Below are positions 13,141-62,978 of a stretch of DNA of 64,000 nucleotides, in pieces. This DNA is from Eledone cirrhosa (lineage: Eukaryota): positions 15,376,001 through 15,440,000 of the forward strand of contig OZ024745.1 in assembly GCA_964016885.1 (NCBI GenBank), written 5' to 3'. The position numbers and the translations under genes were made by a program. The notes beneath the pieces are model-generated. The model saw nothing but the letters and a program-made list of their open reading frames with translations. It ran no database searches and was not told the origin of the DNA. How positions within the stretch are numbered: position 1 is the stretch's first letter; the number at the start of each line of letters is the position of its first letter.

Positions 13141-13386
13141 AAGGCGCATAGCTTAGTGGTTAGAGCATTGGGCTTGCAATCGAAAGGTTGTGAGTTCAAT
13201 TCTCGGACCGGGTGATGTGTTGTTTCCTTGAGCAAGAGACTTTATTTCACGTTGCTCCAGTTTACTCAGCTGTAGAAATGAGATTATAGGACTGGGGTCC
13301 CTATCATTAAGTTACCCAAGAGACCGCCAACGAGATATACCTTGGAGGAGGCCAGCTAAACCTGCATAGGTGTGAGCTGTCACACA
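13141..13386 (+). mobile_element. tRNA-derived SINE (family 2)
   Basis: Near-identical to 5595-5838. Confidence 0.8.
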
Positions 13387-15572: not shown

Positions 15573-15619
<47 letters not shown>

Positions 15620-15668
15620 TATAGTGACGAAACATAAGTCAATTGCATGAACTCATAATCCTTTATTT

Positions 15669-15724
15669 ACTGCTATATATATTTCGATGATAGCCATTGA
15701 ATGGCTATGACCTCATCAGGCAGT
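15669..15724 (-). ncRNA. minimal type I hammerhead (family B, intact cores)
   Basis: ACTGC-CTGATGA-GGTCATAGCCAT tca ATGGCTATCATC-GAAA-TATATATA-GCAGT; palindromic AU stem III. Confidence 0.8.
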
Positions 15725-16473
15725 TAGTCACTTCTTAGATATGCCAGCTCTGTGTTTATAGTGTTGATGGTATCAGAGCCTTGGGACATATGAGCTTGTT
15801 AGGAATAATTTAATGTTGTCAGCAGGAATAGTCTTAATTCTCATTGGTCAGTTTGTAGATACTAGTAGGGTTGGTATTTGACCTCAAAGAGGCAGGTGGT
15901 GTTGTAAAGTTCAAACCGTCAGGCAAGATGACAATAGATCCACATGACTGATTTTCACAAAAAGCATTCCTGGTCAGATATATATTCAATTAAGGTTAAT
16001 AGTATGAAATAGATACTACAGGTCATTCTTAAATTGAGGAATTTATGTGGAGTGGTGCTACTGAAAATTATGGTTAGAGTAGAAAATTTACAAATAAAAA
16101 GACTTATGTGGTTGGCTTGCAGATACACTCACACCCACCTCCACAGATGCACACAAACATCCACACATACAAATTGAGGAATTAATGTGGGGTGGTAATA
16201 CTTAAAATAATGGTTAGAGTCAAATACTTAGATAGTTTAGAAAAAAATACTTATGTTGGTTGACTTGTACATACACTCACACCTACCCCCTCAGACACAC
16301 ACACATCTACACACACAAATCCATACAGGTGTGTATATATATATGTATACGCACAAGTGCATATATATATACAACAGAGGCCCCCAAATCCAATATATAT
16401 ATATTTATATCCCCCAAGGCTCTGATACCATCAACACTATAAACACAGAGCTGGCATATCTAAGAACTGACTA

Positions 16474-16529
16474 ACTGCCTGATGAGGTCATAGCCATTCA
16501 ATGGCTATCATCAAAATATATATAGCAGT
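16474..16529 (+). ncRNA. hammerhead family B, G12A-mutated copy
   Basis: Same as 15669-15724 but GAAA reads AAAA at 16513. Confidence 0.7.
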
Positions 16530-16874
16530 AAATAAAGGATTATGAGTTCATGCAACTGACTTATGTTTCGTCACTATTATAACTCCGGAACTTATATCTT
16601 CGTTGAGTGCTCCCTATCCGCATACTGAAGTACTGGATTTTACCAACACTTACTTTCTTGCTTATCTATATATATATATATATGTATTATATTATATTAT
16701 ATTATATTATATAGAAATGACTTCGACAGTACTAGAATTGTTTTATTCGTACATAATCACCAGCACATTCCTGATAATTTCATAAATAAAAAGTGTCTAT
16801 ACTCTACCAATGTATTGAGTAACCTTTTGACTGTGGTTAACCTCGACAAGACTCGCTAAACTCTCTCCCTCTCC

Positions 16875-16911
<37 letters not shown>

Positions 16912-17179
16912 AACGGGAAAAAACGAAACGATATTTCATTTCCCCCTCTTAGTACGGCTGTTACTTAAATATATGTATGTACACGTACATACATATATGT
17001 ATACAGACGTACAGTAGTATGTATATATATATACATACATGCACACATATATATATATGTACGTATGGATTCATCGAATATTTATTATAATGCTCGGTGT
17101 GTTTGTAAACAAACATCCCGTATTAAGCCGTAGTGTCTAGCAACCACCGCTGCTCGTTTGTTCAACACTGACAAAGGAA

Positions 17180-17220
17180 CGCTGTACTAGTTTCAAGCTT
17201 GTTAGCTATCGTCAGCAACG
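17180..17220 (-). ncRNA. minimal type I hammerhead (family C)
   Basis: CGTTG-CTGACGA-TAGCT aaca AGCTT-GAAAC-TA-GTA-CAGCG. Confidence 0.85.
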
Positions 17221-17617
17221 TATACCTTCCTGCCAGATTGTTGAAAGTATATACTTACCTTATGCATATTAACGGCTGAGTAGCCCAATATGCATATCGA
17301 GTGGGTTAATCGGCCGGGTGCACCGAAAACGATAAACGGAAAAAAACGGAACGATATTTCATTTCCCACTCTTAGTGCAGCTGTTACTTAAATATATGTA
17401 TGTACACGTACATACACATATGTATACAGACGTACAGTAGTATGTATGTATATTTACATACATGCACACATATATATATGCACGTATGGATTCACCGAAT
17501 ATTTATTACAATGCTCGGTGTGTTTGTAAACAAACATCCCGTATGCAAATTGGGCTACTCAGCCGTTAATATGCATAAGGTAAGTATATACTTTCAACAA
17601 TCTGGCAGGAAGGTATA

Positions 17618-17658
17618 CGTTGCTGACGTTAGCTAACAAGCTTGAAACTAGTACAGCG
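17618..17658 (+). ncRNA. hammerhead family C, A9U-mutated copy
   Basis: Core reads CTGACGT instead of CTGACGA. Confidence 0.75.
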
Positions 17659-18027
17659 TTCCTTTGTCAGTGTTGAACAAACGAGCAGCGGTGGTTGCTA
17701 GACACTACGGCTTAATACGGGATGTTATAATAAATATAATAATAAATATTCGGTGAATCCATACGTGCATATATATATGTGTGCATGTATGTATATATAC
17801 ATACATACTACTGTACGTCTGTATACATATGTGTATGTACGTGTACATGGATATATTTAAGTAACAGCCGTACTAAGAGTGGGAAATGAAATATCGTTTC
17901 GTTTTTTTCCGTTTATCGTTTTCGGTGCACCCGGCCGATTAACCCACTCGATATGCAAATTGGGCTACTCAGTCATTAATATGCATAAGGTAAGTATATA
18001 CTTTCAACAATCTGGCAGGAAGGTATA

Positions 18028-18068
18028 CGTTGCTGACGATAGCTAACAAGCTTGAAACTAGTACAGCG
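18028..18068 (+). ncRNA. minimal type I hammerhead (family C)
   Basis: CGTTG-CTGACGA-TAGCT aaca AGCTT-GAAAC-TA-GTA-CAGCG; palindromic stem III ACTAGT. Confidence 0.85.
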
Positions 18069-18448
18069 TTCCTTTGTCAGTGTTGAACAAACGAGCAACG
18101 GTGGTTGCTAGACACTACGGCTTAATACGGGATGTTTGTTTACAAACACACCGAGCATTATAATAAATATTCGGTGAATCCATACGTGCATATATATATG
18201 TGTGCATGTATGTATATATACATACATACTACTGTACGCCTGTATACATATGTGTATGTACGTGTACATACATATATTTAAGTAACAGCCGTACTAAGAG
18301 TGGGAAATGAAATATCGTTTCGTTTTTTTCCGTTTATCGTTTTCGGTGCACCCGGCCGATTAACCCACTCGATATGCAAATTGGGCTACTCAGCCGTTAA
18401 TATGCATAAGGTAAGTATATACTTTCAACAATCTGGCAGGAAGGTATA

Positions 18449-18489
18449 CGTTGCTGACGATAGCTAACAAGCTTGAAACTAGTACAGCG
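18449..18489 (+). ncRNA. minimal type I hammerhead (family C)
   Basis: Identical motif 421 nt downstream of the previous copy. Confidence 0.85.
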
Positions 18490-18804
18490 TTCCTTTGTCA
18501 GTGTTGAACAAACGAGCAACGGTGGTTGCTAGACACTACGGCTTAATACGGGATGTTTGTTTACAAACACACCGATCATCATAATAAATATTCGGTGAAT
18601 CCATACGTGCATATATATATGTGTGCATGTACGTATATATACATACATAGTACTGTACGTCTGTATACATATGTGTATGTACGTGTACATACATATATAT
18701 ATATAAACCTGTTTCTACATCATCCACTCTCATCCCAGGAACAGTTTTGATAGCGCTAGTTTGTGATTTAAATTCAGGAATTTTATATTCTTTGAATGAA
18801 AAGA

Positions 18805-18888
18805 ACCTTCTGACGAGAATCTTTCTTTGCAACGAAGGCCGTATGGTCTCCGTTTTATTTTTGGGATTCGAAACCGATCGGTAAAGGT
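18805..18888 (+). ncRNA. type I hammerhead (family D)
   Basis: ACCTT-CTGACGA-GAATCT[...]GGATTC-GAAAC-CGATCG-GTA-AAGGT; palindromic stem III ACCGATCGGT. Confidence 0.9.
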
Positions 18889-19287
18889 AACTATAGTAGG
18901 TAAAGTCAATTTTTTAAAATTTATTTTGAAACTTTTTCATTATTTGCTAAACCTTGTTTATATTTGTTCTGGCTCGTTGATTTATTAACCCGCCATTGAA
19001 CCACACTGGCATTTGGTTGGACAATACATGCGTACCTTGGCGCCTTGTGCGTGAAGGAACGTATATCCTATTACTACTACCTCCACTAATGTTGAGAACA
19101 AATTTGGTTGTTCTGACTGCTGCTAGCAATAGCTGTGGCTAGTTCGACCTACCTCCTTTTGCCTCTATCTTTGCTTCGGCCCTTGATAAACCTGTTTCTA
19201 CATCATCCACTCTCATCCCAGGAACAGTTTTGATAGCGCTAGTTTGTGATTTAAATTCAGGAATTTTATATTCTTTGAATGAAAAGA

Positions 19288-19371
19288 ACCTTCTGACGAG
19301 AATCTTTCTTTGCAACGAAGGCCGTATGGTCTCCGTTTTATTTTTGGGATTCGAAACCGATCGGTAAAGGT
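19288..19371 (+). ncRNA. type I hammerhead (family D), second copy
   Basis: Identical to 18805-18888. Confidence 0.9.
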
Positions 19372-19438
19372 AACTATAGTAGGTAAAGTCAATTTTTTAA
19401 AATTTATTTTGAAACTTTTTCATTATTTGCTAAACCTT

Positions 19439-19513
<75 letters not shown>

Positions 19514-19608: not shown

Positions 19609-20058
19609 ACATGAGTATATCAGTAGTTGCTCCATCGAACTGCGTCACCAGAATCAGGTTAAATGACCAGCAAGGGGGGTCCCCACACTGTCATACCAAG
19701 GACAATATATCTACATGTCTGGTCATATTGATATATTTGTCAACGAAATATATATATACATATGTATATATGCTCCCTTTGTCTCTCCCTTCTACTTTAC
19801 TTCTCTCTGTCACTCCTTAATTTATCGTAATGCTGTTTTAGTCTATCACGTCTTCCAAATGACACAAAACAAAACACTTTCTGCCATTTCATATTCGATA
19901 TCTTCCTCGATTTCTCTCTCCTACCTTCTCTCCTTCACTTGTCATTCCACTTCTCTTCCTAATATATTCGTCCTCTATTTTGATCATCATCATCACCATC
20001 ATCATACATATGTTCTGACATATATAAACATTCACACATACACACACATATATATGTA

Positions 20059-20953
20059 CGAGGTGTGTCGGAAACGTTCCAGGACTGATGTCACAAAATA
20101 TTTATTTCAAACCCAAACTTCACACTAAGAGTTTTCTCCTTCAAAGTAATCCCCCTGGAGTCTAGTGCACTTTTCCATCCTTTTCTGCCACGCTTGCATG
20201 CATTCCTGCTAGGATTCTTCCGGGATCTTCCTCAGTTCCGTCGTCACAGCCTTTTTGATGTCGTCCACGTCTTCAAAACGGGTCCCCTCCGGGTCGTACT
20301 TGAAGATCCATGACTCACCGGTGATGACTGTCCCTAGCAAGTCTGGTTCGGTTTCAAGATGCTCTAGGATGTCCTGGCACACTTGCATTCGTCAACCCTT
20401 CTGGTCACCGTTCAACAGTTTTGGCACCTTCTTCGCGCAGACTTACTGCATGTCCAAATCTTCAGTGAGAATCTTCCAGACGCTGTCTCGATTCATGCCC
20501 AGCTCATTTGCCATCAGTCGAACAGTCAGCCGACGGTCGCTACGCACCATCTACTTGACGCGCTCAACGTTGACCTCAGTCCTGGTTGTTGAGGGCCTTC
20601 CGCTCCTGGGGTCATCTTCCACGTCCTCGCGTCCTTCTTTAAACCTCTTGCACCACTCAAAAATACGTGAGCGTGACTTCGTCTCATCTTTATACACTTG
20701 CTGCAGCGGAGTTTTCCCCAACCGTACCTGAAACCTCAAGTTTGTTCGTTGCTCTGTGCTAATTGCTTGACAACCTGAAACAGAGGACATGTCTATAAAA
20801 TTATGGAGAAAAATGTTTGATCGCTGCAGAGAGCTAAGATTACAGTTACATACTCCAGGGGGATTACTTTGAAGGAGAAAACTGTTAGTGTTAATTTTGG
20901 GTGTGAAATAAATCTTTTGTGACATCAGTCCTGGAACTTTTCTGACACACCTC

Positions 20954-20954
<1 letters not shown>
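20059..20954 (-). mobile_element. internally deleted mariner (Tc1/mariner) transposon
   Basis: ~100-bp TIRs starting CGAGGTGTGTC with TA on both flanks. Minus translation EQRTNLRFQVRLGK...FEWCKRFKEGREDVEDDPRSGRPST (HTH), KVPKLL, C-terminal GDYFEG; contains stops and most of the catalytic domain is missing. Confidence 0.92.
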
Positions 20955-21005
<51 letters not shown>

Positions 21006-21185: not shown

Positions 21186-21977
<792 letters not shown>

Positions 21978-44355: not shown

Positions 44356-45246
44356 ATGACTGCATCACCAGACATAAAAAACAGAAATAGAAGAAGAAAT
44401 AATACATTTTTCAACCCTCCTTTCAATCTAAACGTCTCTACCAACCTACCTAGGGCTTTCTTTTCACTACTGTATAAACACTTCCCATCCGGCCACAGGT
44501 ACCATAGCCTTTTAAACAAAAACACTATTAAAATCTCATACTCCACTACGCCTAACTTAGCATACCACATAGCTAGTAGCCATAAAAGACAAATTAATTC
44601 TTACTTCCAACAAACTAAATCACAACAGACGATAAACCTTCAAAATAACATTCAAAATAACATTATAGCAACTAACCATAATATCAATAGATATAATAGT
44701 ATTAGTACTAGTTTAAACATTAACGCTGTGAACGACAACCCACATAACCATAACCCTATAGCTAACATCCAAACTTCTACGCAGCATAGTAACCGGCAGA
44801 CTAGCACCCAGAATAATTGTAACTGTAGATCAAATAGAACCTGCCCTTTAGATAAAAAATGCTTAACCAAGGATATCATATACTCATGTACAGTCACAAC
44901 TAACAACTCTTCTGAAACCTATATAGGCTCTACTTCTAACTGCTTCAAAACTAGATACAATTCGCACCTCCACTCTTTCAAAAAACACAGTCTAGCCAAC
45001 TCCACTTCACTATCTAGCTACATACACTATCTAAAAACTAAAAATAAAATATATACACTTAAATGGGAGGTGGTAGGTAGTGCAACATCGTACAAACCAC
45101 CTAATAAATTTTGTAACCTCTGTCTACTAGAGACCCATACTATCATCTTCTCTAACCATAATCTCCTTAATAAAAAATCAGAAGTGTTCGCATCTTGCCA
45201 GCACCGCTTCCGACACTCTTTCCAAAACTTTAAACCTTATATATAA
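44356..45246 (+). pseudogene. Penelope-like element C-terminal ORF (thumb end, Cys linker, GIY-YIG endonuclease), 5'-truncated
   Basis: FNPPF...KHFP..H...NKNTIKISYS; CNC....CPL...C; IIYSC...YIGST..FKTRY..H; CNLCLLE...LLNKKSE...CQH. Confidence 0.9.
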
Positions 45247-46254: not shown

Positions 46255-47870
<1,616 letters not shown>

Positions 47871-48262: not shown

Positions 48263-48493
48263 TATATATATATATATATATATCGTTTCTGAATTTGTTT
48301 AGCAAGATTCCTTATCTGAAATCGTGTGTTGAAACCGATATTATTATACTTTGGGAAGGTCATGTTGCCAATAAGAAAAACACGCACCAGTTGCTTTCAC
48401 TTCAATTTATTATAATAAATTTATAATAAATTTATAAATTTATAAATTTCTGGTTGGTTGGTTGGATCCACAACCAGATAGTTGTTTATATAT

Positions 48494-48538
48494 TGTCATA
48501 GTTCTTTCGTCACACACTCTGTGACCTCTTCAGTGACT
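48494..48538 (-). ncRNA. minimal hammerhead (family J)
   Basis: Mirror of 48649-48693. Confidence 0.75.
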
Positions 48539-48648
48539 GGGGATTCCTTTCTTTGTTTCTGTGCCTCTCCTTTGTTCTGTACTACGCAGAAACAAAATGG
48601 CGTAGGACAGAACAAAGGAGAGGCACAGAAACAAAGAAAGCAATCCCC

Positions 48649-48693
48649 AGTCACTGAAGAGGTCACAGAGTGTGTGACGAAAGAACTATGACT
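48649..48693 (+). ncRNA. minimal hammerhead (family J)
   Basis: AGTCA-CTGAAGA-G-GTCACA gag TGTGAC-type stem II-GAAAG-AA-CTA-TGACT. Confidence 0.8.
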
Positions 48694-48843
48694 ATATATA
48701 AACAACTATCTGGTTGTGGAACCAACCAACCAACCAGAAATTTATAAATTTATAAACTTATAAATTTATAAATATATAATAAATTGAAGTGAAAGCAACT
48801 GGTGCGTGTGTTTCTTATTGGCAACATGACCCTCCCAAAGTAT

Positions 48844-48879
<36 letters not shown>

Positions 48880-61520: not shown

Positions 61521-62978
61521 TTAAAGATTAGAAATTAAAAAAGAAAAACAGGATAAAAAAGAAGAAAAATAGGGGACCGCTAACGACATAGTATGAGTAA
61601 ATTGTATAATATAATGAAATAAGGTAGAAGGATGGGTATATTTGTAAAAGATATAAAAGTGTTTGAGAAAAGAAGATTTTAAACTAATTAGGTAGATATT
61701 AGCTGTACACTTTATTGAAAGTTCATGGGATTTATGCAAGCAGAGCGAAAATAAATCCGTACGGCTATTTATTATAGAATTAAAATTAGAGATAATGGTA
61801 AATTTCTCCGCTAGGCAGAGATTACATGTTCTGGATAGGAAAGAATTCAGGTAAGGAGAGGCGTTGCAAACCTTCCTCCAAGAAATGTTGTAGTTAATAT
61901 TTTTGTCTTTTAAGGACCATATGAGTTCTGAGAGTGCCGGGTTAGTTCTTTTAAGTTGGTATTTAAAAGAAGAATTGTGATTATAAAATCTTGCTTTAAA
62001 GGAAGTGGAGGTGGAACCAAAATAGGTAAAAGAATTAGTACCAGTTATAACCTTACATTCATACACTAAATTTTTATCAAGACATTGGTTACTAAGAGGA
62101 CATTTAGTTCTAACAGGGCAATTGCAATTACGATTAGAGAAATTACCAGGGTTATTAACAAGTGACCTAGTATTATTTATAGAACGAATTGGATTGGAGA
62201 AGTTATTTACGATAGGTGCTAAAGTTTCCTGATTTAGATTGGTGTTATGAACATTCGACAAAGTTACGTTTGACGTCGTATTTAAATTTACGGAATCTAG
62301 CCTAGAGTTAACATTGACGTCGGGTTTACTATTGCTATTATTATGACGCTCAGTGTTGGATGGATATAATTTATTACTTAATATTTTATTATTATGTTTA
62401 GAGATAATGTTAGAGATGTTGGAAGTGGTGGAATAAGAGAATTTAATTGTATGTTTATTAAATATCTTACTATAAATATGCGAGGGAGAGGAGTATTTAT
62501 TTAAGGCCCTAAAAAATAATTTAGGAATATTACTAATAATAGATAGAGAAAAAGGAGCGTTGTACCAAATCATATTTTTATATCTAGGTCTTTTCTTTAT
62601 GTTATTGGAATGCTTATAACTAACTATATTACTATAAGTCCCTCGATGATTGGTTTCTTTACTGTATTTAACTTTGTCAGGATAACCGGCTCTGGAAAGC
62701 GCATTATTGTAATAATTGGCTTTAGCGTCAAAGATAACTTTATTAGAAGATAGATTTGAGATTCTTTTTTCAACATTACTGACTATAGCATTTTTAACGT
62801 TAATAGGGCGGTTAGATTTAAAATTAACATAATTTAGATTCTCATTGTCTTTATGGTAAGGGTAATATAAGCCGGTGTCAAGATTAAGGGATATATCCAG
62901 GAAGTTAGCTATTTTGACGTTGTTTTCAAATTCAATTTTTAGGTTAAGGTGCTTAAATAGATCAAGTATATTATTCAT
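61521..62978 (-). pseudogene. 5'-truncated PLE ORF (RT C-terminus/thumb, Asn-rich linker, GIY-YIG)
   Basis: ANFLDISLNL...YPYHK...YVN..SN.P; RISNLSS...YNNALSRAGY; WYNAPFS; CNC....CPL...C; LVYEC...YFGSTSTSFKARFYNH; CNLCLAEK. The 5' end is cut at (TA)n, and the last ~65 codons look like read-through. Confidence 0.9.

Follow-up and report, generated by a model that had tools for sequence, protein, structure and literature searches.

The sequence between positions 16909 and 18701 of the window (the whole 64,000-nucleotide stretch of DNA analysed here) is most likely a single non-LTR retrozyme insertion. A Penelope-like (PLE) reverse transcriptase/GIY-YIG enzyme acting in trans would have written it, the probable template being a circular RNA monomer. 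The family to which it belongs shows a PLE-type tail at one end, an end geometry shared with the autonomous PLEs of its own genome, and copies that cross the ribozyme cut. A structural motif scan of the window detected four type I hammerhead ribozymes of one type in an array of 421-bp units. With the unit numbered from the base directly 3′ of the predicted ribozyme cut (position 1), the array and its flanks comprise the following features.

16890..16908, no strand: (TA)n target, left flank, as read in the sequence
16909..17544, minus strand: inverted 5′-truncated arm of 636 nt (1.5 units), unit 62-421 then 1-274, the outer end being the long end (274)
16909..16965, minus strand: 57-nt PLE-type tail, unit 218-274, at the left end only, between the two inferred reverse-transcription starts
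17179..17221, minus strand: type I hammerhead, intact core (C3/H17 = 17215/17185), predicted cut after 17185
17542..17544, no strand: inversion junction with a 3-nt TAT microhomology, joining two 5′-truncated arms at unit 62 and 310
17542..18701, plus strand: direct arm of 2.8 units (unit 310-421, a 410-nt unit, a 421-nt unit, unit 1-217), ending at the short end (217)
17617..17659, plus strand: type I hammerhead (C3/H17 = 17623/17653) with an A9U core change at 17629 (CUGACGU)
18027..18069, plus strand: type I hammerhead, intact core (C3/H17 = 18033/18063), predicted cut after 18063
18064..18484, plus strand: the sole full 421-nt monomer flanked by two intact same-strand cores
18448..18490, plus strand: type I hammerhead, intact core (C3/H17 = 18454/18484), predicted cut after 18484
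18703..19446, plus strand: 1.5 copies of the 483-bp unit of a separate, younger hammerhead repeat family, adjoining the short end, with cores at 18810 and 19293

The organization described in an initial annotation of this DNA, tandem units with one hammerhead each, an ACUAGU palindrome and a GUA site, was recovered by the motif scan for all four copies. TRF reported a period of 421 and 2.8 copies for the direct arm (17542-18698), where the cut-to-cut distances are 410 and 421, in agreement with the annotated spacing of 421 nt for the last two copies and 410 nt for another unit. The 410-nt unit had been described as deleted; its length is correct, but 23 nt are missing and 12 nt are duplicated, so that it is no plain deletion. 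Also borne out were the inversion of the first 1.5 units, which corresponds to the arm at 16909-17544 and is 96-97% identical to the direct units, and the A9U change in one copy. No ORF of at least 150 aa was found in 16911-18704, and the RT and GIY-YIG ORF of an autonomous PLE is absent. A read-through transcript entering from the left would be expected to pair both arms as a duplex of about 500 bp.

All four hammerheads contain GAAA-CUAG-UA, that is, the palindromic ACUAGU with the GUA site. A 6-bp helix I leads through a bulge into a long distal extension, the 4-bp helix II has a U-U in place of G10.1-C11.1 at its base, and helix III has 1-2 bp with a palindromic loop. From hammerhead chemistry, the A9U copy is presumably impaired. 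The motif matches the canonical metazoan type I layout as defined in PMC4209133, according to which canonical motifs cleave as dimers, and in which the minimal form (min-HHR) is described with helix III and loop 3 absent, a short helix I (4-5 bp), a long helix II and G10.1-C11.1. The label "minimal" used in the initial annotation was consequently dropped: the predicted hammerhead of the 421-bp unit is canonical type I, because of its 6-bp extended helix I, its 4-bp helix II, the presence of loop 3 and the U-U. A search of Rfam at the gathering threshold missed the motif.

In 22 distinct natural copies, drawn from subfamilies with identities as low as about 80%, the predicted pairing was kept in 97.5% of cells, as compared to 28-43% in slid controls. 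One helix I pair alternates between U-G, G-U and A-U in these 22 copies, and two pairs change on both sides, among related copies, so that covariation gives modest support. Core positions vary by 1.6% against 1.3% at non-CpG positions elsewhere; the core is therefore not visibly more conserved among genomic copies. Predicted circular folds of two natural units gave z = -3.8 and -7.0 (50 shuffles each) with 69% of the bases paired, and the monomer 18064-18484, folded as a circle, gave z = -3.8 with helices I and II predicted to form over the junction. Rough energies likewise predict that a double hammerhead (-20.4 for two) would be favoured over a single one (-1.7). The GTAAGT at 18408-18413 was considered as a PLE 5′-UTR splice donor and rejected: the site reads GTAAG in young subfamilies and GAAAG in older ones, including most older copies, and no GT..AG joint was seen.

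The unit is not unique to this locus. Over the 3.0-Gb assembly, the 39-nt core has 1,766 exact matches and 0 for its reversed control, so that its occurrence is not due to chance, and a degenerate core including subfamily variants has 23,912 matches, again with 0 for the reversed control. Matches of 98-100% identity to the unit lie on many contigs. Subfamily unit length ranges from about 420 to 540 bp, and the hammerhead and the long helix I are retained in subfamilies that are only about 80% identical. The copies are dispersed and high in number, extend from monomers to multimers and, judged from the ends as read, are without LTR/PBS/PPT or poly(A). The sequence features of non-LTR retrozymes are all present (tandem non-coding units, one type I hammerhead each, low GC), and we are almost certain that this is a mobile family of the retrozyme type. 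Variants related to 18230-18600 were present in X1 and X6, among four runs of unrecorded library type, and are uninformative on transcription, ends and circles.

The initial annotation had spoken of a young retrozyme insertion. The retrozyme kind is upheld by the dispersed, non-coding, high-copy family, but not the youth: the units of the locus diverge mutually by 3.3-3.5%, against 0-0.4% within the youngest insertions (L081, L085, L099), and by 4.9% from other loci. By this divergence the locus would be middle-aged, outside the youngest set. One core is mutated (A9U) and one unit rearranged (410 nt), and the locus is probably a passive copy rather than a source; on its own, it is ordinary. 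DNA-level expansion of long old arrays occurs as well, since the long arrays L061 and L063/64 are as divergent internally as between loci.

Insertion ends were surveyed in 54 insertion groups from 45 regions, consisting of the window and 44 contig-1 regions from the beginning of the list of core matches. Selecting loci for an intact core that spans the cut introduces a bias, of which the genome-wide junction counts given below are free. Among 83 scored 3′ ends, 40 are at unit 274, 31 at unit 217 and 12 elsewhere, some of these last being artefacts of BLAST-piece splitting, as are four 5′ ends assigned to position 1 (two in L061, one each in L062 and L064). The family has two fixed insertion ends located 57 nt apart, and the ribozyme cut is not an end. 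Regular ends adjoin (TA)n in 66 of 71 cases (39/40 long ends, 27/31 short ends), and inner and 5′ ends are scattered along the unit. Thirty-one of the 54 groups are inverted. When both ends of an inverted group could be scored, 24 of 29 groups showed one long and one short end, none showed two alike, and five had an irregular end; counted among the 24 are the window and three groups that come from a single region, two of them duplicates. Older subfamilies (420-540-bp units) display the same long and short pattern in 9/9 inverted pairs examined by eye. Partial tandems, an inverted 5′-truncated copy, a one-end tail and a microsatellite bias are listed as PLE features in PMC8557442. The PLE tail is described in PMC11167929 as the stretch between two internal RT start sites, with AT-rich DNA cut and extended on both strands. 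To judge from their geometry, the ends and the inversion of the 421-bp family are a Penelope-like insertion signature, overlooked in the initial annotation, that points to the mobilising machinery, and the family is very probably mobilised by PLEs.

Elements with RT and GIY-YIG are numerous in this genome, with 10,596 candidates returned by a Pfam GIY-YIG search of the assembly, and autonomous PLEs are among them. Their ORFs reach 938-1096 aa with about 97% identity between copies and contain, by eye, a Cys-rich linker as in Neptune/Nematis. In their inverted copies L136 and L146, too, a long end is paired with a short one, both lying in (TA)n, and the tails measure about 65 and 55 nt. A second PLE clade terminates in (ATT)n rather than (TA)n. 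Hammerhead-like cores with U3/A8 for C3/G8 were seen at autonomous PLE 3′ ends (L131:2300-2600, L136, L140, L121, L124, L125), a variant previously noted in Schistosoma PLEs (PMC4209133). Within the window, PLE reverse transcriptase ORFs with a relationship to the L080 clade survive as remnants at 44404-44991, 46952-47621 and 61962-62861.

The post-cut motif is present in 8,950 copies genome-wide, of which 13 start exactly at the cut and 11 at an upstream control site; 4 of 10 inspected cut-site junctions are small deletions or duplications. A cleaved linear monomer was rejected as template, the pile-up of 5′ ends expected at the cut being absent. This absence indicates a template continuous over the cut, either a circle or an uncleaved multimer, so that the initial proposal of a circular or multimeric template stands as far as continuity is concerned. 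Units of the same locus resemble each other: in 24 of 26 cases the opposite arms of a locus diverge less from each other than from other loci (0.023 vs 0.044), and the same holds for same-strand units in 35 of 39. Six shared non-CpG variants, followed in 52 of 58 loci (six regions with long satellite arrays or duplicated/double insertions were left out), are fixed within loci in 40 cases and mixed in 8, where permutation leads one to expect 94. In L099, each covering piece of both arms has 97G and 343T. Repeated copying of one monomer as a circle has been proposed in PMC7229834 and PMC4209133, and variants shared by both arms fit a circular template without proving it. We regard a circular or nicked-circular template as moderately probable; a young homogeneous source array would give a similar uniformity within loci, an effect for which the permutation does not correct. 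In L097:3927-6823, a variant at unit 283 is found in 6/7 direct-arm units and 0/2 inverted-arm units, which may point to two template molecules or to expansion at a later stage.

We tentatively suggest that the arrays may be genomic records of rolling-circle target-primed reverse transcription, in which a circular ribozyme RNA would be copied by a paired PLE enzyme with one fixed site per nicked strand, possibly from two RNAs joined by the palindromic helix III, the RNA being recognised by its fold and not by shared sequence. In the favoured reading given at the outset, an array would be transcribed, paired hammerheads would cleave the transcript via the palindromic ACUAGU, and the long helix I would keep the monomer ends together for ligation. 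The PLE enzyme would then nick both (TA)n strands, one DNA end priming at unit 217 and the other at unit 274. Each cDNA would make a variable number of rounds on the template, and the two 5′-truncated cDNAs would finally meet head to head at a short microhomology.

The same PLE machinery could instead have used an uncleaved linear multimer transcribed from a young homogeneous array, with the hammerhead as a passenger or acting late, and no circle. We consider this unlikely, even if it accounts equally well for the continuity over the cut and agrees with the in vitro insertion of an Anolis PLE, which as described in PMC11167929 used unprocessed RNA and was unaffected by hammerhead mutants. Xenopus retrozyme dimers are reported as uncleaved in 8/9 cases (10.64898/2026.07.22.740005). 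In the window, variant 35G occurs in one inverted and one direct unit and is absent from the remaining two; a mosaic template would produce such a pattern, chance sharing being also plausible. An uncleaved multimer would nevertheless need a monomer bottleneck to explain the variants fixed in all units of both arms of L099. It also has to face the rarity with which shared polymorphisms are mixed in a locus (8 vs 40) and the preservation of the hammerhead and long helix I in the subfamilies of about 80% identity.

A different origin is proposed by the unequal-crossover satellite model put forward in 10.64898/2026.07.22.740005: the units would originate from an autonomous PLE as stray pseudo-LTR ends, which entered as short pieces and later expanded locally at the DNA level. 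The existence of long divergent arrays (L061, L063/64) speaks for it, and the PLE families have been sampled in part, 150 of the 10,596 candidates being scored and 50 loci read, together with 15 loci of the second PLE clade. No pLTR resembling the 421-bp unit was found among these 65 loci, which are a fraction of the 10,596 candidates. Unit-like pieces close to PLE ORFs (L125, L141, L142) proved to be separate nested insertions; L200 also contains a unit piece. We nonetheless hold this origin to be improbable: in about 80 regions no unit runs into a same-strand PLE ORF as its 3′ UTR, and near-zero-divergence multimers on both arms with precise long and short ends (L081, L099) would demand two independent expansions per locus. 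L1 elements are known to produce 5′ inversions, and when these arise by twin priming, the inverted arm has an outer end that follows the direct-arm truncation point. Mobilisation by a LINE (non-PLE) or as a DNA rolling circle, with inversion via L1-type twin priming or hairpin repair, is very remote and, despite LINE-like RT ORFs in the genome (L093 ORF, by eye), is largely refuted by the strict pairing of long with short ends (24/29, 0 alike). In addition, the unit itself carries neither a poly(A) nor a simple-repeat tail, and the outer end is fixed at 217 or 274 with random inner ends, unlike L1 twin priming.

Other elements lie close to the array. The 483-bp family that adjoins its short end has a palindromic helix III, and its helix II region spans 53 nt; like the 421-bp family it has a long and a short end, with a tail of about 110 nt. 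Identical copies lie on many contigs, many of the 1,439 search candidates are 100% identical, and the copy next to the array is followed by (TA)36 at 19442-19513. A third hammerhead family forms an opposite-strand pair at 15617-15791 (minus) and 16407-16670 (plus), whose ends, one of each kind, are set in (TA)n; the GAAA box of the plus copy is altered. A fourth forms an inverted pair at 48283-48850, with cores at 48533 (minus) and 48654 (plus) and a tail of about 57 nt at one end. The window also contains an element with 142-bp terminal inverted repeats at 20020-20993, by eye probably a decayed Tc1/mariner-type DNA transposon (no Pfam match), a tRNA-like head at 13149-13206 that probably belongs to a SINE, and a palindromic insertion (about 540 bp) flanked by TA runs at 21348-21883, with a partial copy at 21912-21976.

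The retrozyme kind is already known and the link to PLEs has already been proposed in print; what is added here is evidence from end geometry and exact predictions of start sites. The mobilising enzyme of animal retrozymes and the circle as template have so far been argued from co-occurrence and homology (PMC7229834; 10.64898/2026.07.22.740005). For the existing in vitro PLE assay, the predictions are RT starts at unit 217 and 274 on a (TA)n target. These elements are a real part of the genome, given roughly 24,000 hammerhead copies and the presence of three or more further families of this kind in the window. If true, the rolling-circle reading with a paired PLE enzyme would settle which enzyme moves animal retrozymes and would provide a 421-nt substrate for reconstitution.

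The family resembles the metazoan non-LTR retrozymes of coral, mussel and axolotl (Cervera & de la Pena 2020, PMC7229834) in several respects: the tandem units are non-coding and each contain a single canonical type I hammerhead, the GC content is below 50%, copies number in the thousands, and PLEs co-exist. As in those retrozymes, the predicted circle is highly self-paired with hammerhead helices I and II formed, and the U-U at the base of helix II is shared with axolotl HHR_Amex2. It differs by a unit of 421-540 bp instead of about 170-400, and in being known here from DNA alone. PLEs are named in that paper as candidate mobilisers only; in its main text the word "inverted" occurs 0 times, and no fixed tail ends or 5′ inversions are described there. 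A literature search on hammerheads in octopus and cephalopods and on retrozymes with Penelope-type tails found no description of the family or of retrozyme tail ends; supplements may hold end alignments.

Dependence of retrozymes on PLEs, as non-autonomous derivatives, was also concluded by Li, Clavereau and Pollet (2026, 10.64898/2026.07.22.740005), on the basis of co-occurrence and pLTR homology, mainly in vertebrates, with local unequal crossover being suggested. In contrast, the present argument is based on end geometry, with no pLTR homologue in 65 loci and with multimers apparently made at insertion. As compared to endonuclease-bearing PLEs (Penelope/Poseidon, Neptune, Nematis; PMC8557442, PMC11167929, PMC4209133), the family has no ORF, no conserved splice donor, a canonical instead of a minimal hammerhead, and a tail of 57 nt where 30-40 nt are reported. 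It shares with them partial tandems, an inverted 5′-truncated copy, a tail at one end, AT-rich or microsatellite targets, and a hammerhead located upstream of both RT starts.
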